The position numbers were made by a program, and so were the translations under genes. The notes beneath the pieces were generated by a model. It ran no database searches. It saw only the letters and a program-made list of their open reading frames with translations, and was not told the origin of the DNA. Below, in pieces: positions 21,398-32,139 of a DNA stretch of 52,259 bases; positions within the stretch are counted from its first letter, which is position 1, and every line of letters begins with the position of its first letter. This stretch comes from a phage: the NCBI GenBank assembly GCA_025325205.1, contig GCA_025325205.1_4770.1. The stretch is one strand, 5' to 3'.

Positions 21398-23401
21398 ATG
21401 TTCAAACTACGTGATTATCAGCAAGAAGCTGTAAACAGTACATTGCGCTATTTCATCAAGTATGGTGAAAAGTCAGGAAATCCTGTTATCTTGTTGCCTA
21501 CAGGGACTGGTAAGTCCCTTGTAATTGCTGGTCTATTAAAGACAATTCACGATAATTGGGGTAGTACCCGCATGATGGTAATTACTCACGTAAAAGAATT
21601 GATAGACCAGAACCACGATAAATTTAAGAAGTTGTGGCCTGAAGCACCGACTGGTATTTATAGTGCTGGTATGGGTCGCAAGGATAAGAATGCAATGATA
21701 ACGTTCGCAGGTATTCAGTCTGTTGCAAAACAAGCTAAATACTTCGAGGACGTTGATATTATTATAGTTGACGAATGTGACCTTATTAGCCCAAATCAGC
21801 AAACAAGTTATCAGAAGTTCTTTGCGCACATTCGTGAAAAGAACCCATATCTAAAGATTATCGGTCTTACTGCTACGAGTTGGCGTCTTGGTTTTGGTTC
21901 TATTATCAAAGATGATTATGCGCCTAACGCTTTATTTGATGAAATCGTATTTAACGCATGTACCGTAGAGTGCTTCAACTGGTTCATTGATGAAGGTTAT
22001 CTTGTTCCGTTAGTACCACGTAAAACAAAGAAAGAGTATGATGTAAGTGGTGTTCATACTCGAGGCGGTGAGTTCATTGAAAGTGAGCTTCAAAAGGTTG
22101 TAAACGATCCTGATGTAACTCGCCATTTATTAGATGATGCGATTAGTATTGCGGAAGAAGAGAATAGAATGAGTTGGCTTGTCTTTTGTGCTGGTGTAGA
22201 CCATGCAAAAGATGTCAAAGACTACCTCAACGAGCGCGGTATTAGTTGTGAAGTTGTAACTGGTGATACACCGAAAGCCTTGCGTGACCAGTATCTTATT
22301 GATTTTAAAGCTGGTCGTTTACAGGCAATAGCAAACAACAACGTATTGACGACAGGCTTTGACCATCCGGGTCTTGACTTGATAATTGGTATGCGCCCGT
22401 CCCAATCTTCCCGCCTATGGGTTCAGATGCTTGGACGTGGTACTCGACCTGATTATGCAGATGGTTTTGATTTGACCACAACGGAAGGTCGTTTGCAAGC
22501 TATCTCCGCTTCGCATAAACAGAACTGTCTTGTACTAGACTATGCAGGTAATACAAGACGTCTTGGACCTATTAACGACCCTGTAATTCCTAAGCGTCCA
22601 GGGCAGAAAGGAAAGTCCGCTGCACCTGTTAAAGAATGCCCGGTATGTAAAACCTGGAACCATGCGTCGGTTCGCTATTGTGGTGGGTTAAAACCATTCG
22701 ATACAAGCGGTATGTCCCATGAAGAAATACTCTATCTTCAAGGGTTAGGATATACCATTACAAATAATAAAGCGTGTCGTGCTGGTTATTGCGGTCATGA
22801 GTTTACTTTTGAGAAGAAACTGATGGCGAGTGCTAGTACGAAGGCTATTATCAAGAATGATTTGCCAGTCACTGAAGTGTTGAAAGTTGATATGGTGAGT
22901 TACTATCGTCACGAGAACAGGGGTGACCGTTCTAAGCCACCAACACTTCGTGTAGATTATCTTTGTGGGTCACAAACTATTCAACAATATATTTGTCTGT
23001 TTCATACTGGCTTTGCAGGCAAGAAAGCGCGTAACTGGTGGCGCGAGCATTGCAGCTTGGCAATCCCAGCCAACATTGACGAAGCCCTCAATGTGGTCAG
23101 CCAGCTCCGTGTACCGACGCACATTTATGTCAACTTGAAGGGTAAGTTCCCTGAAGTGTTGAATAGTTGTTATGACGGTAGTGAGTTCGGTAAGAAAGAA
23201 GCAACCAACGAACGTCCGGTTGTACAAATCGCAGCAATGAATGGCTTGTCCCAGTTTGGTGGAAGTTATACGAATAAGTTTGATGAAGACGAGCAGACTG
23301 ATTCTCGTACGACAGTATTGCATTCTACGTCTAATCAACCTATTCTTACTGGTAACGGTAAAGAACTACCACCAGATTTTGATGACGACATTCCATTTTG
23401 A
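21398..23401 (+). CDS. SF2 DNA helicase with zinc-finger and SSB-like acidic C-terminal tip
   Basis: Walker A LLPTGTGKS, Walker B IIVDECD, TATSWR, QMLGRGTR; CPVCKTWNHASVRYC; last residues PPDFDDDIPF. Confidence 0.75.
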   Translation: MFKLRDYQQEAVNSTLRYFIKYGEKSGNPVILLPTGTGKSLVIAGLLKTIHDNWGSTRMMVITHVKELIDQNHDKFKKLWPEAPTGIYSAGMGRKDKNAMITFAGIQSVAKQAKYFEDVDIIIVDECDLISPNQQTSYQKFFAHIREKNPYLKIIGLTATSWRLGFGSIIKDDYAPNALFDEIVFNACTVECFNWFIDEGYLVPLVPRKTKKEYDVSGVHTRGGEFIESELQKVVNDPDVTRHLLDDAISIAEEENRMSWLVFCAGVDHAKDVKDYLNERGISCEVVTGDTPKALRDQYLIDFKAGRLQAIANNNVLTTGFDHPGLDLIIGMRPSQSSRLWVQMLGRGTRPDYADGFDLTTTEGRLQAISASHKQNCLVLDYAGNTRRLGPINDPVIPKRPGQKGKSAAPVKECPVCKTWNHASVRYCGGLKPFDTSGMSHEEILYLQGLGYTITNNKACRAGYCGHEFTFEKKLMASASTKAIIKNDLPVTEVLKVDMVSYYRHENRGDRSKPPTLRVDYLCGSQTIQQYICLFHTGFAGKKARNWWREHCSLAIPANIDEALNVVSQLRVPTHIYVNLKGKFPEVLNSCYDGSEFGKKEATNERPVVQIAAMNGLSQFGGSYTNKFDEDEQTDSRTTVLHSTSNQPILTGNGKELPPDFDDDIPF

Positions 23402-23408
23402 GGCTTAT

Positions 23409-23648
23409 ATGGCAAAGATGACTTTTAGGAGTAATGACCATTTACCAGAAGAAGGTGAATGGAAGACTTTTAAAGAGTGGGAAGAGTTGGGTTATGGTGT
23501 AATTAAAGGTGAAAGAGCTAAACGGTTTATTCACGGTGTTGCAGTTTTTCACGAAAGTCAAGTAATCAATATTGAAGATGAGTTCGAAAAATATAAACGT
23601 GAAGAACTGCAAGGAATGTATTGTGGACCAGAATGGTGGAAGGATTAA
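23409..23648 (+). CDS. hypothetical protein
   Basis: ORF 23241-23648 trimmed to ATG 23409 after helicase stop. Confidence 0.3.
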   Translation: MAKMTFRSNDHLPEEGEWKTFKEWEELGYGVIKGERAKRFIHGVAVFHESQVINIEDEFEKYKREELQGMYCGPEWWKD

Positions 23649-25292: not shown

Positions 25293-25316
25293 TCTGTAGA
25301 CACTTCGGAAACTCAG

Positions 25317-25345
25317 AAGGGGCATTTACTGCCCCTTTGTTATCT
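25317..25345 (+). terminator. rho-independent terminator
   Basis: GGGGCA-ttta-CTGCCCC hairpin followed by TTTGTTATCTT. Confidence 0.55.
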
Positions 25346-25360
25346 TACCCCGAGGTTCAA

Positions 25361-26125
25361 ATGTTTGCACAAGCCATTATCGCCCACCACTGGGCTCAAG
25401 CCAAATTTGGAAATCATATGAAAATTATTAATACTCAGGAACCTGAGAAGTTAGTTCGTGAACGTGGTATTCTTGATGTACATTCCATTTTTCATACCAT
25501 TCAAGGCGAAGGCCCATTTTGTGGTCAACCTGCCGTATTCGTTCGATTAGCTGGTTGTAACCTGCAATGCCCAGGTTGCGATACAAACTATACGTCCAAT
25601 CGTAATAAAATGAGTCACAGTGATATTTGGCAAGAAATCGTTCGTGTCACTGGTGAAGCCAAGACTAAATTAGTTGTCATTACTGGTGGCGAACCTTTCC
25701 GTCAACCTGAAGTTGTTAGTTTTATCAACTACCTTATTGATATGAAAGGATACCGTGTACAGGTTGAAACTAACGGGACTATGCCTATCCCGCGTGAACT
25801 CAACTATAGTTGTGTGGTAGTATGTAGTCCTAAGGCAGCAAAGATTCACCCTAGCGTTTCCGCTCGAGCAAATGCTTTCAAATATGTAATGAAAAGTGGA
25901 AACGTCAACGAGGAAGATGGATTACCGTTGCAGGCACTGGATCACCGTGCAACACCATTTATCGCACGTCCGCCTGTACACTTTAAAGGTAATATTTATC
26001 TTCAGCCTATGGATGAACAAGACGACGATGCTAATAAAGCAAACGCTCAAGCTGTCGTTAAATACGCAATGAAGCATAATTATATCGTGCAATTGCAGGT
26101 TCATAAGTATTTAGGTGTAGAATAA
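25361..26125 (+). CDS. queE: 7-carboxy-7-deazaguanine synthase (radical SAM, QueE-like)
   Basis: GEGPFCG ... LAGCNLQCPGCDT (CxxxCxxC radical-SAM cluster motif), VITGGEP; start chosen at ATG 25361 after GAGG. Confidence 0.7.
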   Translation: MFAQAIIAHHWAQAKFGNHMKIINTQEPEKLVRERGILDVHSIFHTIQGEGPFCGQPAVFVRLAGCNLQCPGCDTNYTSNRNKMSHSDIWQEIVRVTGEAKTKLVVITGGEPFRQPEVVSFINYLIDMKGYRVQVETNGTMPIPRELNYSCVVVCSPKAAKIHPSVSARANAFKYVMKSGNVNEEDGLPLQALDHRATPFIARPPVHFKGNIYLQPMDEQDDDANKANAQAVVKYAMKHNYIVQLQVHKYLGVE

Positions 26126-26203
26126 AGTTATACATATTTGAAAACGCGCGGATGGTCAGCGTGCTGAAAGATACAATGTGTTCAACTAATAAGGTAAATT
26201 ATT

Positions 26204-26965
26204 ATGATCAAATATGTCCAATTACTTGGTGAGATTGTTCCGGAAGATGTATTGAATAAGTGCCTGTTCGATGAAGACGGGTTTGTAAAACATTATGTAG
26301 ATACACCTTCCCAGTTTGCATCTCACTCGGCTCTTGGATTTGTAATTCGAGCTGGATATGCAGTGGATGTGTTGAACGACATGAGTCCTACAGTCACTGT
26401 TTTTGTTGAAGGTATGGACGTACATGATCTTATGAATTTAAAGACCGTTTATAACACGCATGTGACACCACCACGTAATGCACTTTACAAATGGCGTATC
26501 AATACTTCTGTTAGTAGAATCCAAAAACCAGCAGAAGAAGCGGAAGCGGATGCCAAGAAGTACACGACATCTACTCAGAAACTAGCTGGTATGATGGAGG
26601 ATGTACTTACGAGCGCCTTTAAAGTTGATCGTAACAAAGAAGGTGAGCCAGAAGTATTCATTGATGAAGCATTAATTAAGAAAGATCATATCCAGGAGAT
26701 TAAAGCTCCACGTCCGAATAAATATATGCGCAAAATTAAAACTTTTGAATCGCATGATATTAACGGTAGCCCGATTGAAATTGATGTATGGGTTGACGTG
26801 TACGACGTAATTAAAGCATTCAATGTAACCAGTGGGCCCATGCAACATGCACTGAAGAAAGTGCTGTGTGCTGGTGAGCGCGGTCATAAAGACTTGCTGA
26901 AAGACCTCAACGACATCATTGCATCCGTTGAGCGTGAAATTGAAATGGTTAAGGAAGGTAATTAA
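26204..26965 (+). CDS. hypothetical protein embedded in the 7-deazaguanine module
   Basis: 253-aa ORF between queE and gat-queC; no motif recognised. Confidence 0.45.
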   Translation: MIKYVQLLGEIVPEDVLNKCLFDEDGFVKHYVDTPSQFASHSALGFVIRAGYAVDVLNDMSPTVTVFVEGMDVHDLMNLKTVYNTHVTPPRNALYKWRINTSVSRIQKPAEEAEADAKKYTTSTQKLAGMMEDVLTSAFKVDRNKEGEPEVFIDEALIKKDHIQEIKAPRPNKYMRKIKTFESHDINGSPIEIDVWVDVYDVIKAFNVTSGPMQHALKKVLCAGERGHKDLLKDLNDIIASVEREIEMVKEGN

Positions 26966-26966
26966 T

Positions 26967-28382
26967 ATGTGCTCTATCTTTGGTGTTATTACTAACGGTC
27001 AACCTGAAAGTCTTATCATTCGTAACGATATCAACGATCTCATTAAAGCTAGTGTCAACCGTGGTCGTGATGGTCTTGGTGTACGCTTTACGCATGGTGA
27101 CCACAGTATGCACCCGCAACGTATCGTCAGCGTCGGTAAAGAAACATCGATGGAACGTCTTGTTAAAGTGGGGCGCATTGCATCTCACGCTGGAGCTATT
27201 GGCAGCTTCACGATGATTGGTAACGCTCGTGCTGAACCGACTACAGAATGGGTCGTTGACAAGAGCGAGTGGGACCAGCAACCATATCACCTCGATGGTT
27301 GGACTATTGTTCATAACGGTACTATTGCGAACGATAAAGACCTTCGCACCTATGCACTACAAACTAAGATCGATAGTGCTGCAATTGTTGAACAGTTAGC
27401 AGAATGCACACTTTCAAATGATGAAACATGTTTAACTGACTTTAACTACCTGTATAGTGTGTTTCACGAAGTTGTTCGTAAACTGAAAGGGAGTTACGCA
27501 ATTCTTGCGACACATGATTCATTCCCTGGATGCGTGTTTGCAGCATGTAACTATCGTCCGATTTGGATTGGCCAGACTAATACTGGTATGTATTTCGCCA
27601 GCCAGGAAGATATGTTACCGACCAGCGCAACTAAGCGGATGTTGAAACCTTACTCATGTAGTGTGGTTACAGCTACAGATGTACAAAATGAAGTTGATCT
27701 TATTCCAAATAAGCAGACTCAACGTGCGTTAGTTGTCGCCAGTGGTGGTATGGACAGTACGGTGGCAGCTCAGATGTGCAAGTCCAATGGTTTAGATGTC
27801 ACTCTCATTAACTTCCAGTATGGTTGTCGTGCAGAAACTAATGAGTTAAAGGCTATTCGTAAGATTGCGGAAGTAATGGAAGTTCCGTTAGTTGAGTTCC
27901 CAATCCCAATTTACGATAAGAAAGACAGCCCGTTATTTGATCAAGACGCTGCAATTGCTGGTGGCGAAGAAGGTGCTGAGTTTGCCCATGAATGGGTTCC
28001 AGCTCGTAACCTTGTAATGCTTTCTGTTGCTACTGCATACGCAGAAGCTAACGGTTTCGACTATATTGTTCTTGGTAACAACTTAGAAGAAGCTGGAGCC
28101 TATCCGGACAACGAGCCTGAGTTTATTAACCGCTTTAATCAGGTGCTACCATTCGCTGTAGGCGACGGTAAGCGCGTTGAAGTGCTCATGCCAGTAGGTA
28201 ACTTAATGAAGCACGAAATTGTCGCTACAGGCCTACGTTTAGGGGCCCCGCTTGAGCACACCTGGAGCTGTTACCGTAACGGGGATTTGCATTGTGGTAC
28301 TTGTGGCCCTTGCATGATGCGTCGGACTGCGTTTAATATTAATAACGCACAAGAAGTTATTAAATACGAAAGCGAGGAATAA
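26967..28382 (+). CDS. queC: glutamine amidotransferase-QueC fusion (7-cyano-7-deazaguanine synthase-like with N-terminal class-II GATase)
   Basis: Begins MCSIFGV (Ntn Cys after Met, asparagine-synthetase-like); central ALVVASGGMDSTVAAQMC PP-loop (SGGxDS); C-terminal WSCYRNGDLHCGTCGPCMMR Zn-Cys cluster typical of QueC. Confidence 0.7.
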   Translation: MCSIFGVITNGQPESLIIRNDINDLIKASVNRGRDGLGVRFTHGDHSMHPQRIVSVGKETSMERLVKVGRIASHAGAIGSFTMIGNARAEPTTEWVVDKSEWDQQPYHLDGWTIVHNGTIANDKDLRTYALQTKIDSAAIVEQLAECTLSNDETCLTDFNYLYSVFHEVVRKLKGSYAILATHDSFPGCVFAACNYRPIWIGQTNTGMYFASQEDMLPTSATKRMLKPYSCSVVTATDVQNEVDLIPNKQTQRALVVASGGMDSTVAAQMCKSNGLDVTLINFQYGCRAETNELKAIRKIAEVMEVPLVEFPIPIYDKKDSPLFDQDAAIAGGEEGAEFAHEWVPARNLVMLSVATAYAEANGFDYIVLGNNLEEAGAYPDNEPEFINRFNQVLPFAVGDGKRVEVLMPVGNLMKHEIVATGLRLGAPLEHTWSCYRNGDLHCGTCGPCMMRRTAFNINNAQEVIKYESEE

Positions 28383-28383
28383 A

Positions 28384-28917
28384 ATGGGTTACACTGTTAT
28401 TCGTTCACATGAGATTTGCGCTGGTCATCGTGTTGTAGGTCATGAAAGTAAGTGTCAACACTTTCACGGTCACAACTATAAGTTCCATTTTAAAGTTGCA
28501 CCAAAGAAAACATTGTCGGAAGGTTACGTCAAATCTGTAAGTGGATTTGCTCTGAATGGCTCTCTGGACGATGTGGGCCGCGTTATAGACTTTAGTGTGG
28601 TTAAAACTACGCTGTGTCAGTGGTTGGAAGATAATTGGGATCATAAGTTCCTGCATTGGGAACATGACAGCGTAATTAATTCACTTATTATTGTTGCATC
28701 AACTAAGTTCGCGCGTGAAAATAATCTAGTAAAGGACGAAGATTATGATCCTTTCGTTAATTCACTGGTATCTTTACCGTTCAACCCAACTGCGGAAAAC
28801 TTAGCTGCATATATGGTTGACGTAATTGGTCCTCAATTACTTGACCAGTATGGTGTTGAACTGGTAGAATGCACCATTGAAGAAACGTCCAAATGCCATG
28901 TTAACTATTGCAAATGA
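28384..28917 (+). CDS. queD: 6-carboxy-5,6,7,8-tetrahydropterin synthase (QueD-like)
   Basis: CAGHRVVGHESKCQHFHGHNY contains the CxxxHGH zinc/catalytic motif of the PTPS/QueD family. Confidence 0.7.
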   Translation: MGYTVIRSHEICAGHRVVGHESKCQHFHGHNYKFHFKVAPKKTLSEGYVKSVSGFALNGSLDDVGRVIDFSVVKTTLCQWLEDNWDHKFLHWEHDSVINSLIIVASTKFARENNLVKDEDYDPFVNSLVSLPFNPTAENLAAYMVDVIGPQLLDQYGVELVECTIEETSKCHVNYCK

Positions 28918-28943
28918 TTGACCACACAAGGAAACTGTAAACC

Positions 28944-29558
28944 ATGAACGAATTTACAAAGATGACAAACAGAGCAGAGATTTCGCACAGCATTGAAAAG
29001 ATTTTAAAGTTGATTGAAGGTGGGGATGATCTGCGTGAAGGCTTGGTTGAAACTCCATCACGAGTCGCTAAAGCATTTGAAACATGGTTCAGCGGTTACG
29101 ATGTTGATATTGCATCCTTGTTCAAGACCTTTGAAGATGGTGGGGAAAACTGCAATGAAATGGTTATTGTTCGTGATATTCCTGTTTACAGTCATTGCGA
29201 ACACCATATGGCCCCTATTATCGGTCACGCTGTCGTGGGGTATGTTCCTAACGGTCGCATCGTGGGGCTTAGTAAACTGTCTCGCGTGGTTGATGCTTTT
29301 AGCCGTCGCTTGCAAGTCCAGGAGCGTTTAACTAACCAGATTGCGGATGCTATCGTAGAACACTTAGACCCGAAAGCTGTGTGTGTTTACATCGATGCAA
29401 AACATATGTGTATGGAGTCGCGCGGTGTCAAGCAAGTTTGCGGAAGCTCAACCATTACTAAAGCATTCCGTGGGCGTACTGCATTGGGCGATGGTGTATT
29501 ACCTGATGTGACGGGTGACACATGGCGTCGGGAATTTCTTGAAGCGTGTAAGAAGTAA
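28944..29558 (+). CDS. folE: GTP cyclohydrolase I (FolE)
   Basis: VYSHCEHHMAPIIGHAVVGYVPNGRIVGLSKLSRVVDAFSRRLQVQERLT: conserved CEHH zinc motif and GLSKL...QVQER segment. Confidence 0.8.
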   Translation: MNEFTKMTNRAEISHSIEKILKLIEGGDDLREGLVETPSRVAKAFETWFSGYDVDIASLFKTFEDGGENCNEMVIVRDIPVYSHCEHHMAPIIGHAVVGYVPNGRIVGLSKLSRVVDAFSRRLQVQERLTNQIADAIVEHLDPKAVCVYIDAKHMCMESRGVKQVCGSSTITKAFRGRTALGDGVLPDVTGDTWRREFLEACKK

Positions 29559-29592
29559 CTGATTTGCGAATCATACATTATCTTTAATATAA

Positions 29593-29618
29593 TAAGCGCC
29601 TACGGGCGCTTATTTGTT
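29593..29618 (+). terminator. rho-independent terminator (possibly partial) between folE and dpdA
   Basis: AGCGCC-tacg-GGCGCT hairpin followed by TATTTGTT. Confidence 0.5.
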
Positions 29619-29627
29619 AGGTGAACA

Positions 29628-30581
29628 ATGCACAGAGAAGATATCAATTATACCTTTCAGATTTATATGGCTGCCGTATATACGAACAGCTATAAACCAG
29701 GAATGAACCGCTATGTTAAACTCAACGAACAAGAAAAACGTGTTGTCGAAAATATTCCAAACATTCTTGAATCCTGGCACTACGTTGGAAAGCAATCATA
29801 TGTTGATGCCATGCGTGCCGATGGGGCCAAGATATTCCTCGACTCCGGGGCGTTCTCAGCTTACACTTTGGGAGTTACGTTATCAGTTAAAGAATACTGC
29901 GATTACATCCAACGAAACATAGATATCATTCGTGTAGAAGATGGTTCACTTATGGCGTCCGTACTCGATGGTATCGGTGATCCACTTCAAACATGGCGTA
30001 ACCAGGAAGAGATGGAAGCCAGAGGTGTAAGACCTTTACCATGCTTCCACGCGGGTGAACCTTTTGAATACCTGGACCATTATGTACGAAATTATGAGTA
30101 TATCACGCTCGGTGGTCTTGTTGGAGCAAGTACGCAACAACTTCAGATATGGCTGGACAGGGTATGGGATAAACACCTTGTGGATGGTAGTGGACGCGCT
30201 AAAATTAAAGTTCACGGATTTGGTATTACATCCCGTCCACTTATGGAGCGTTACCCGTGGTACTCCTGTGACTCATCTTCCTGGATCCAATCCGCGGCGT
30301 TCGGTGCTATTGAAACGCCTAAATGGGGACCAATGCAGGTATCAGAAAAGTCCCCGTCACGTCACTATCAAGGGCAACATATCTGTAATCTTTCAGAAAT
30401 AGAACAGAACAACGTTCTACGCTACTTAGAGGAGTCAGGTTTCACATACGAGCGACTTTCAACGATATATGAATCACGAGCTGCATACAATTTATGGGCG
30501 TATGGTGTGGTCAACGCTATGATTCTTGCTAACCACAATGGGAAGTTCAACGAACGTCTTCAGGATTTATTTGACGAGTAA
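29628..30581 (+). CDS. dpdA: DNA-guanine transglycosylase (TGT-like, DpdA family) candidate
   Basis: 317 aa; KIFLDSGAFS resembles the TGT catalytic-Asp motif (DSGGFQ); last gene of the preQ0 pathway cluster; start uncertain (weak RBS). Confidence 0.55.
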   Translation: MHREDINYTFQIYMAAVYTNSYKPGMNRYVKLNEQEKRVVENIPNILESWHYVGKQSYVDAMRADGAKIFLDSGAFSAYTLGVTLSVKEYCDYIQRNIDIIRVEDGSLMASVLDGIGDPLQTWRNQEEMEARGVRPLPCFHAGEPFEYLDHYVRNYEYITLGGLVGASTQQLQIWLDRVWDKHLVDGSGRAKIKVHGFGITSRPLMERYPWYSCDSSSWIQSAAFGAIETPKWGPMQVSEKSPSRHYQGQHICNLSEIEQNNVLRYLEESGFTYERLSTIYESRAAYNLWAYGVVNAMILANHNGKFNERLQDLFDE

Positions 30582-30589
30582 GGTTACTT

Positions 30590-31582
30590 ATGGATTTACT
30601 TGATGCTTTAAAGTTTGTTCAGGGTTCTGTAGCTAAGAAAGAACTCCAGGAAGGTTTAACTCACTTCCGTATTGTTGATGGTACTGTTCGCGGGTTCAAC
30701 GGAACTATTTCATTGTGTAGTCCAGTACCACTGAACATTGACTGTACACCGAAAGCCGAACCGATGCTCAAGGCTATTGCAGCATGTGACGAAGCTGTAC
30801 AGATGACAATGTTAGCGAACGGTAAGTTGAGCATTAAGTCTGGTGGCTTTAAGGTCAGTGTAGACACTCTTCAGAAACCAACTGCGCACGTAGAGCCAGA
30901 AGGAACAATTCACGAAATAGACGGTCAGCTTTTTCTCAACGGTTTAAGCCGCGTAACGCCGTTTATAAGCGACGATGCTTCCCGCCCGTGGTCTTGCGGC
31001 GTGCTGGTAAAACAGGGCAGCATGTACGCAACCAACAACGCTAGTATTATACAATATTGGTTCGGTGCTGTATTCCCTGTCGATTGTGTTGTGCCACGTA
31101 TGGCCATCAAAGAATTATTGCGTATTAAAAAGCCACCAGTAAGAATTCAATGTACAGATACCAGTATGACATTTCACTACGAAGACGGTTGCTGGTTGCG
31201 TACCCAATTGCTGGAATTAAAGTGGCCCAACATTGACAAGATAATCGAGCGTACAGAAAAGGGGTCTGACGTCTATACGCTTGATACTGAGCTTTTTAAC
31301 TGCTTAGAGAAAATAAAACCGTTCTGTGAACGTGATGGGCGTATCTACATGGAAAATGGTGTTGTGCGCACCCATTACAACGAGCTGGATGGTGCTAGTG
31401 CAATGTTCCGTGAATCTAAGTCAATTGGCGTGTATAATATAGATCTCATTATGCAGTTGAAAGGACTTGCAACGGACTGGGATGCCTCTCGTTTCAATGA
31501 AAAGGACGAAAGGGGTCTTTCAACTCCTATTATTTTTTATGGTGAAAATCTACGTGGGGTAATTGTAGGATTTCGTCTATGA
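30590..31582 (+). CDS. DNA polymerase sliding clamp (beta-clamp/DnaN-like)
   Basis: FISDDASRPWSCGVLVKQG...YATNNASII resembles the beta-clamp domain-II signature (F-x-S-x-DE-x-RP-x-L-x-GVL ... ATDG-RLA); N-terminal GTVRGFNGTISL like the clamp GTD strand; about 330 aa. Confidence 0.5.
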   Translation: MDLLDALKFVQGSVAKKELQEGLTHFRIVDGTVRGFNGTISLCSPVPLNIDCTPKAEPMLKAIAACDEAVQMTMLANGKLSIKSGGFKVSVDTLQKPTAHVEPEGTIHEIDGQLFLNGLSRVTPFISDDASRPWSCGVLVKQGSMYATNNASIIQYWFGAVFPVDCVVPRMAIKELLRIKKPPVRIQCTDTSMTFHYEDGCWLRTQLLELKWPNIDKIIERTEKGSDVYTLDTELFNCLEKIKPFCERDGRIYMENGVVRTHYNELDGASAMFRESKSIGVYNIDLIMQLKGLATDWDASRFNEKDERGLSTPIIFYGENLRGVIVGFRL

Positions 31583-32139
31583 GAAAAGCATTGCCGTTAC
31601 CGCCGTACACTTATCTTCATGAGTGCTTCGACTATAACGAAATTACTGGTGTCCTCACATGGAAAGTGAGGCCCTCACATCATTTTAAATCCGAAAGAGC
31701 TCGAAAGATCGCAAACACACTATTTTCTGGAAAACAAGCTGGAAATGTTGTCACATGTAGTGGTAAGAAATACTTACAAGTTACAATAGATAGAAAATTA
31801 TATCTTGTTCATAGAATTTGTTATAAAATGTATTATAACAAAGAACCGACTGTAATCGATCATGACGATGGAAATGGACTTCACAACTGGATATTAAACT
31901 TAAATGATGGTACAATGTCCGACAATATGAAAAACAGGAAGATGTTAGAATGCAATTCCACTGGTGTTACTGGTGTGAGTCTGACTAAATTAGGGATGTG
32001 GAATGCACATATAATGGTTGGATATAAGGGTTATAATCTATATACAGGCCCTGATTTGTTTGAAGCCTGTTGTGCTAGAAAATCCGCTGAACTATTATAT
32101 GGTTTTAATAAAAATCACGGTAAAGAGAGAAATCTATGA
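31579..32139 (+). CDS. HNH homing endonuclease with AP2-type DNA-binding domain
   Basis: IDHDDGNGLHNWILNLN (HNH core) and GVTGVSLTKLGMWNAHIMVGYKGYNLYTGPDLFEACCARKSAEL (AP2-like); AT-rich relative to flanks; ATGA overlaps on both sides. Confidence 0.7.
   Translation: MRKALPLPPYTYLHECFDYNEITGVLTWKVRPSHHFKSERARKIANTLFSGKQAGNVVTCSGKKYLQVTIDRKLYLVHRICYKMYYNKEPTVIDHDDGNGLHNWILNLNDGTMSDNMKNRKMLECNSTGVTGVSLTKLGMWNAHIMVGYKGYNLYTGPDLFEACCARKSAELLYGFNKNHGKERNL

Follow-up and report, generated by a model that had tools for sequence, protein, structure and literature searches.

What does the group of plus-strand genes at positions 25361-30581 of phage contig GCA_025325205.1_4770.1 (assembly GCA_025325205.1) do for the phage that carries it? 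We use 'the window' for the whole stretch of DNA that was analysed, 52,259 nucleotides of one strand. A preliminary description of this stretch saw five consecutive plus-strand open reading frames (ORFs) whose products would make the 7-deazaguanine base preQ0 (7-cyano-7-deazaguanine) and exchange it for guanine in DNA. The feature is real, that interpretation was right, and the system is already known as the 9g-type deoxyarchaeosine module. We have little doubt that the module hypermodifies phage DNA with 2'-deoxyarchaeosine (dG+) and that the phage is a 9g-like coliphage, a Nonagvirus. Genetic and chemical work on phage 9g has described the system since 2016-2019, and the system defines the subfamily Queuovirinae. 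Our analysis adds a sixth ORF, the failure of curated hidden Markov models (HMMs) on the transglycosylase DpdA together with a zinc site missing from that protein, and a prediction that its target motif is GA. The five ORFs named earlier are all present, and the sixth (26204-26965) lies between queE and gat-queC. They had been listed in pathway order; the physical order is different, as follows.

25361-26125, plus strand: queE, radical-SAM 7-carboxy-7-deazaguanine (CDG) synthase, 254 amino acids (aa)
26204-26965, plus strand: orf253, conserved protein without assigned function, homologue of 9g gp7, 253 aa
26967-28382, plus strand: gat-queC, class-II glutamine amidotransferase fused to QueC (preQ0 synthase and archaeosine synthase), 471 aa
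28384-28917, plus strand: queD, 6-carboxy-tetrahydropterin synthase, 177 aa
28944-29558, plus strand: folE, GTP cyclohydrolase I, 204 aa
29628-30581, plus strand: dpdA (DpdA1 subfamily), DNA guanine transglycosylase, exchanging G for preQ0 in double-stranded DNA, 317 aa
25316-25338, plus strand: terminator-like hairpin with a 9-bp stem and 5 GC pairs, from a consensus scan

The window as a whole is 91-95% identical in nucleotide sequence to 9g, BRET, PD328, JenK1, SE1 and ChristophMerian, and the module DNA is 88-94% identical to 18 deposited Nonagvirus genomes; against Enterobacteria phage 9g the figure is 90.5% over 100% of the module's length. By this comparison the window is a Nonagvirus. 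Identity to deposited Nonagviruses is of this order both in the module and in the rest, so the window is not itself a deposited genome but a new variant or isolate within a known genus. The 9g cluster (gp8-gp3) has the same six genes, of the same lengths and in the same order, and within the module only sequence drift separates the two phages. Outside it, the window differs from 9g by insertion of an HNH-type ORF and by a different lateral tail-fibre region. Gap-free alignments give protein identities to 9g of 95.7% for QueE (gp8), 94.1% for Gat-QueC (gp6), 94.9% for QueD (gp5), 96.1% for FolE (gp4) and 99.4% for DpdA, the 9g version of which has been tested experimentally. ChristophMerian and PD328 carry extra small ORFs at some cluster junctions. 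The earlier remark that this gene set is known from 9g-like phages holds.

The enzymes of the preQ0 pathway are individually recognisable, and the motifs quoted earlier for FolE, QueD, QueE, the GATase-QueC fusion and the TGT-like protein all lie where they had been placed. QueE carries CNLQCPGC at nucleotides 25556-25579 and GGEP at 25685-25696, matches Pfam Radical_SAM (3.2e-12) as well as Fer4_12, and belongs to PHROG 2076, 'QueE-like' (5e-69). QueD, with CQHFHGH at 28453-28473, matches Pfam PTPS (1.3e-19) and PHROG 2389 (2e-53). FolE has its zinc-binding CEHH at residue 85 (29196-29207), matches Pfam GTP_cyclohydroI (3.3e-63) and scores 197 bits against TIGR00063, for which the cut-off is 181.6. 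PHROGs places all five named enzymes in the expected phage families and orf253 in a family of unknown function. The 9g folE, queD and queE genes each complement the corresponding E. coli deletion mutant (Hutinet et al. 2019, PMC6884629). As had been reported, no QueF was found: the sole QueF signal in Pfam is a weak T-fold cross-match beneath FolE's far stronger GTP_cyclohydroI match. Those parts of the window that 9g and ChristophMerian lack were also searched for further modification genes (QueF, ArcS, YhhQ), and yielded only tail-fibre domains and ORFs of unknown function.

The nature of the end product turns on gat-queC. One 471-aa ORF contains a GATase_7 match (9.5e-7, residues 97-217) and a Pfam QueC match (4.6e-56, residues 253-458). 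The protein starts with MCSIFGV, which includes Cys2, and has an SGGMDS PP-loop (27741-27758) and a CGTCGPC cluster (28293-28313). Its N-terminus also matches the NCBIfam N-terminal models of GlmS, PurF and AsnB, and its best counterpart in the PDB is QueC 2pg3 (1.7e-13). The presence of Gat-QueC in place of QueC is the feature that divides dG+ phages from dPreQ0 phages in the BASEL study, where Nonagvirus is credited with dG+ and Seuratvirus with dPreQ0 (PMC8594841). Because the fusion is present, the expected product is dG+ specifically. The preliminary description had allowed a preQ0- or G+-level modification; of the two, the G+ level is the expected one. Expression of 9g dpdA alone places dPreQ0 in plasmid DNA (790 per 10^6 nucleotides), and dpdA with gat-queC gives dG+ at 9-18% of plasmid G, with EcoRI resistance (PMC6884629). 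Formation of dG+ by this pair works in delta-queC and delta-tgt hosts and fails in delta-queD (PMC6884629). In 9g virions, about 25-27% of G is dG+, and 9g DpdA defines the subfamily DpdA1 (PMC10516641; PMC10484667).

We envision the following route in the phage of the window. FolE would convert GTP to dihydroneopterin triphosphate, QueD would turn this into 6-carboxy-tetrahydropterin, and radical-SAM QueE would yield CDG. The QueC half of Gat-QueC would then carry CDG through the amide to preQ0. After replication, DpdA would swap guanine for preQ0 in double-stranded phage DNA, probably by a TGT-like double displacement with D215 as nucleophile and D72 as general acid/base. Finally, the Gat half would supply glutamine-derived ammonia, which would convert the preQ0 nitrile to the formamidine of archaeosine, before or after insertion. 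The expected outcome is that about a quarter of virion G is dG+, blocking many type II enzymes and contributing to type I resistance. The earlier proposal that the phage replaces part of its genomic G as anti-restriction armour accords with what the 9g genes do, namely place dG+ in DNA and block restriction (PMC6884629).

Several points weigh against this assignment. Gene content, gene order, motifs and near-identity to 9g are its basis in the window itself; for the enzyme activities, dG+ and restriction resistance of this phage, we infer from 9g at 94-99% protein identity. The window represents about 52 of an expected 56-64 kb genome, and our findings cover these 52 kb. The Gat-QueC step may act either before or after insertion, as the literature leaves both. 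FolE alone among the module proteins passes an NCBIfam equivalog cut-off: the five NCBIfam models that QueE matches best are all QueE models, scoring about 75-95 bits against equivalog cut-offs of 200-300, QueD matches TIGR03367 (1e-16) under its cut-off, and Gat-QueC scores 150.1 bits against TIGR00364 QueC, 0.2 bits under the cut-off of 150.3. Sub-cut-off equivalog scores for QueE and QueD are common for phage versions. DpdA fares worse, with no match to any Pfam or NCBIfam model, TGT/tgt models included. Direct comparison of the window protein with a bacterial DpdA model is marginal (E-value 0.026), as is that of our 71-sequence family profile with the sequence of the bacterial DpdA structure 7ui4 (E 0.12). 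Aligning DpdA profiles to E. coli TGT with hhalign matches the DSGxF region only, at probabilities of 2-7% and a best E of 0.0048.

The profile searches suggested in the preliminary description therefore divide: Pfam supports FolE, QueD, QueE and QueC, and the Pfam and NCBIfam models for TGT/DpdA give nothing for the last protein. Because the curated HMMs return no match, its identity had to be settled by other means. A profile search of a representative library clustered at 50% identity found 6,255 DpdA relatives, and we aligned 71 diverse ones, 30-71% identical to the window protein. None of the 71 matches Pfam TGT. Bacterial DpdA HMMs from PADLOC match 33 of them (best E 5.2e-8), and these relatives had been found by a window-based profile at E <= 1e-43. 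Searches of PDB sequences with phmmer and with a shallow DpdA profile gave chance matches only. Near-identity to a tested enzyme, the transitive link to bacterial DpdA HMMs and the conservation of catalytic residues together support membership of the window protein in the DpdA family.

The catalytic residues can be followed through the marginal alignment to 7ui4, which spans the GG loop, the VHxxG strand and the SxDST nucleophile motif. In this alignment SCD215SS falls on SID256ST, and FLD72SGAF76, part of the FLDSGAFS motif at nucleotides 29835-29858, pairs with GD95CGAF99. The S. Montevideo enzyme uses D256 as nucleophile and D95 as general acid/base, with F99, recognises the base through D130 and H181, and has a Gly-Gly loop at G206-G207 (PMC10164549). 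D215 is invariant in the 71 relatives and D72 is present in 68; G162-G163 align with G206-G207. D114 (69 of 71) and H141 (68 of 71) occur in the right order with plausible spacing, outside any significant alignment to bacterial DpdA. D72, D114, H141, G162-G163 and D215 are each kept in at least 90% of the family, and position 76 is F or Y in 96%. D72/F76 and D215 correspond to D95/F99 and D256 of S. Montevideo DpdA, and D114, H141 and G162-G163 probably to its D130, H181 and G206-G207. All 71 relatives lack the structural zinc site (CxCxxC...H) that TGTs share with bacterial DpdA. C-terminal to the nucleophile, CxCxxC occurs in 0 of 71, 29 relatives lack Cys altogether, and the window protein has C253 only. 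Window DpdA belongs to a divergent, Zn-less phage clade beyond the reach of curated models. In some DpdA1-like proteins (P0185, P0190, P0198, P0209 and P0247), whose lengths are 596-637 aa, the profile match is split in two; its first part stops near the catalytic SxDS motif, around profile position 205, as though an intein or other large insertion lay near the active site.

The module also differs from the bacterial Dpd system (DpdA/DpdB/DpdC; S. Montevideo DpdA, PDB 7ui4) in its partners, product and purpose. No DpdB ATPase partner is encoded here, and 9g DpdA acts in E. coli without one, unlike the bacterial system. DpdC is likewise absent, and dG+ takes the place of dADG as the product. 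The window protein is about 100 residues shorter than S. Montevideo-type DpdA, in addition to having no zinc site. About 25% of G is modified in the phage type, against <0.1% in the bacterial type (PMC10516641). Bacterial Dpd is a host defence, whereas the phage DpdA module is a counter-defence.

Are the five named enzymes the whole module? The gene orf253 could be a sixth component that is needed or modulating, for example by channelling intermediates from QueE to Gat-QueC or by setting the extent or timing of modification. Homologues of 35-42% identity keep the slot directly 5' of gat-queC in three divergent contigs from phages. Only 1 nucleotide separates the orf253 stop from the gat-queC start here, the divergent contigs are arranged likewise, and other cluster junctions gain and lose small ORFs. 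A Seurat protein with the same C-terminal domain also sits inside the cluster, between queC and queD. Against such a role, the conserved position counts for little, since every contig compared is a syntenic relative, and neither a family nor a fold can be assigned to the protein. Its C-terminal domain is found in 773 phage records that include Jerseyvirus and T1-like phages, the match often being only about 60 aa long; no deazaguanine cluster is found among the neighbours of the domain gene in SE2 (Jerseyvirus), and Iggy has the domain far from its cluster. In E. coli expression, dpdA and gat-queC alone yield dG+ at 9-18% of G (PMC6884629), so orf253 is dispensable for the chemistry. We regard a role for orf253 in modification as possible but unlikely.

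The protein itself is 82.2% identical to 9g gp7, and Pfam, NCBIfam and PDB profile searches assign it no family or fold. A supposed resemblance of the C-terminal domain to DUF3310/SaV-like phage proteins was dropped, there being no such Pfam match in 28 family members, and a marginal sterol-carrier match in the PDB profile search (E 0.05) was judged chance. The C-terminal domain (residues ~172-253; ~80 aa) reads …VDVYDVIxAF…QHALKKVLxAGxRGHKD…DLxDII…, and the phages that carry it infect Salmonella, Escherichia, Acinetobacter, Klebsiella, Vibrio and Pseudomonas.

A second alternative is that the module stops at dPreQ0, as in Seuratvirus (CAjan), with the Gat half inactive or otherwise used. DpdA by itself inserts preQ0 (PMC6884629), the GATase domain match is modest (GATase_7, 29.3 bits against a cut-off of 25), and about 6% of positions differ between the Gat-QueC proteins of the window and 9g. 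We consider this very unlikely. The nucleophile Cys2 of MCSIFGV is intact, the alignment to 9g Gat-QueC is free of gaps, and the fusion is kept in every Nonagvirus examined, a genus assigned dG+ (PMC8594841). Co-expression of 9g gat-queC with dpdA turns essentially all inserted base into dG+ (PMC6884629). Seuratvirus phages (Seurat/CAjan) share the backbone queE ... queC ... queD, folE, dpdA, followed by clamp and polymerase, with protein identities to the window of 69% for DpdA, 78% for FolE, 72% for QueD and 65% for QueE. Their QueC, in contrast, stands alone, has no Gat domain and is only about 14% identical to the window QueC half, and their end product is dPreQ0, not dG+. They have an orf253-like gene between queC and queD, and extra small ORFs.

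That the genes serve tRNA modification, raising queuosine (Q) or archaeosine in host or phage tRNA and not in DNA, is scarcely credible: several GenBank/PHROG annotations do call the last gene a queuine/queuosine tRNA-ribosyltransferase, and 9g FolE, QueD and QueE are able to feed the host Q pathway (PMC6884629), but 9g dpdA fails to complement E. coli delta-tgt (PMC6884629), 9g gat-queC fails to complement delta-queC for tRNA-Q and with dpdA modifies DNA (PMC6884629), 0 of the 71 relatives match Pfam tRNA-TGT against 33 that match bacterial DNA-DpdA models, and dG+ has been measured in 9g virion DNA. The archaeal tRNA archaeosine pathway uses the same preQ0 precursor route and the same Gat-QueC fusion architecture, and in similarity networks the Gat-QueC proteins of phages and archaea fall into a single cluster (PMC6884629). 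The archaeal substrate, though, is position 15 of tRNA, not DNA, and insertion is done by arcTGT, an enzyme with Zn and PUA domains; the Pfam TGT model matches arcTGT and not window DpdA.

With the dG+ module as our reading, one can ask which guanines are exchanged. The motif of 9g DpdA was reported as not found in 2017 and was still 'unknown' in 2023 (PMC5567051, PMC10484667); that of CAjan DpdA is GA/GGC (PMC10484667), and that of Iggy DpdA is GA. We think it probable, if well short of certain, that Nonagvirus DpdA targets 5'-GA-3' and that protection has two tiers, dG+ shielding GA sites and G-containing sites free of GA, including those of EcoKI, being purged. The proportions agree with this: the share of G that is followed by A is 26.7% in the window and 26.3% in 9g, and the share measured as dG+ is 25-27%. 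We scored the 56 G-containing hexamer palindromes under a third-order model in the window, 9g and ChristophMerian, with T1 and lambda as unmodified comparison. In each of the three Nonagvirus genomes, the 11-13 nearly absent G-containing palindromes (0-1 copies where at least 5 are expected) are all free of GA. The mean log2 of observed over expected counts is about -0.05 for GA palindromes and about -1.3 to -1.6 for GA-free ones (Mann-Whitney p = 0.005, 0.002 and 0.002 in the window, 9g and ChristophMerian, respectively). Neither GC nor GG gives a comparable contrast, and GT reaches p = 0.045 in just one of six tests. Unmodified T1 (p 0.45) and lambda (p 0.07) lack the GA contrast: GA occurs in 4 of the 13 depleted sites of T1 and in 2 of the 8 of lambda.

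EcoKI sites (AACN6GTGC, either strand), which lack 5'-GA-3' on both strands, follow the same pattern. The window (1-52259) has 0 against 7.6 +/- 2.4 expected; 9g has 0, and ChristophMerian, the only EcoKI-sensitive Nonagvirus in BASEL (PMC8594841), has 2. Read from composition and not from mapped bases, these counts suggest that dG+ protects GA sites and that the phages avoid the others. As close relatives, the three Nonagvirus genomes amount to one lineage, 4 of the 16 GA palindromes contain GATC, and tetramer palindromes show no GA contrast, the 2 sites with GA and 10 without it being too few to inform. In the window, 12 palindromes occur at 0-1 copies against 5.6-21 expected, all with G and none with GA: GCATGC, GTGCAC, AGTACT, ACCGGT, GGTACC, ATGCAT, CCTAGG, AAGCTT, CTTAAG, TACGTA, AGCGCT and GGCGCC. 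GA palindromes are at or above expectation, e.g. GAATTC with 18 copies and GATATC with 23. The reported HindIII 'resistance' of 9g DNA may simply be a near-absence of sites.

For the annotation of this phage, the module means that dG+ DNA resisting many restriction enzymes is to be expected, and that such DNA is expected to sequence poorly on nanopore and to be sensitive to modification-dependent defences. In 9g, dG+ in virion DNA (~25% of G) and resistance to EcoRI, BamHI and EcoRV have been demonstrated (PMC6884629, PMC5567051), and in tests of 9g DNA with >200 restriction enzymes about 71% were blocked (PMC5567051). In the BASEL collection, Nonagvirus and Seuratvirus are broadly resistant to type I and II systems and sensitive to type III (PMC8594841). 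Host answers to 9g/Nonagvirus include the Dag1 glycosylase and END nucleases.

The surroundings of the module are those of 9g. A helicase and two unknown ORFs lie upstream, and a sliding-clamp-like processivity factor and DNA polymerase lie downstream, in both phages. The cluster genes are closely spaced, with 1-nucleotide gaps on each side of gat-queC. The first in-frame start of queE is TTG at 25337; the ATG at 25361 agrees with the 9g annotation. The hairpin at 25316-25338, between an upstream 274-aa ORF and queE, is a possible boundary of the transcription unit; as a consensus-scan match it is weak evidence and may be chance (13 terminator-like sites observed against 8.4 +/- 2.5 expected in the scan). 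A promoter-like site at 29564-29593 on the plus strand (TTGCGA, an 18-nucleotide spacer and TATAAT), in the 69-nucleotide gap directly 5' of dpdA, may also be chance. Promoter-like sites are not enriched, with 16 found against 21 in shuffles, and we therefore claim no operon structure from the scan.

Three segments of the window depart from 9g and ChristophMerian. A 186-aa ORF at 31579-32139 on the plus strand lies between the clamp and DNA polymerase genes, overlapping each by 4 nucleotides; it has a weak HNH_3 match under the cut-off (E 0.0018), segment 31589-32132 is absent from 9g and ChristophMerian, and the product is probably a homing endonuclease. Neither 9g nor ChristophMerian shares the minus-strand region 34369-37749, which holds the gene of a 727-aa lateral tail-fibre protein (phage_tail_N, and Peptidase_S74 as an intramolecular chaperone) and three small ORFs of unknown function. 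Regions of this type are the usual host-range swap regions in 9g-like phages. Segment 23400-23636, within the plus-strand ORF 23241-23648 between the helicase and a 240-aa ORF, is likewise absent from 9g and ChristophMerian, and its position holds a gene of about 79 aa in PD328 and metagenomic relatives. Its product matches the ArdC N-terminal domain weakly, just under the Pfam cut-off (E 3.6e-4), and the segment could be an extra anti-restriction gene.

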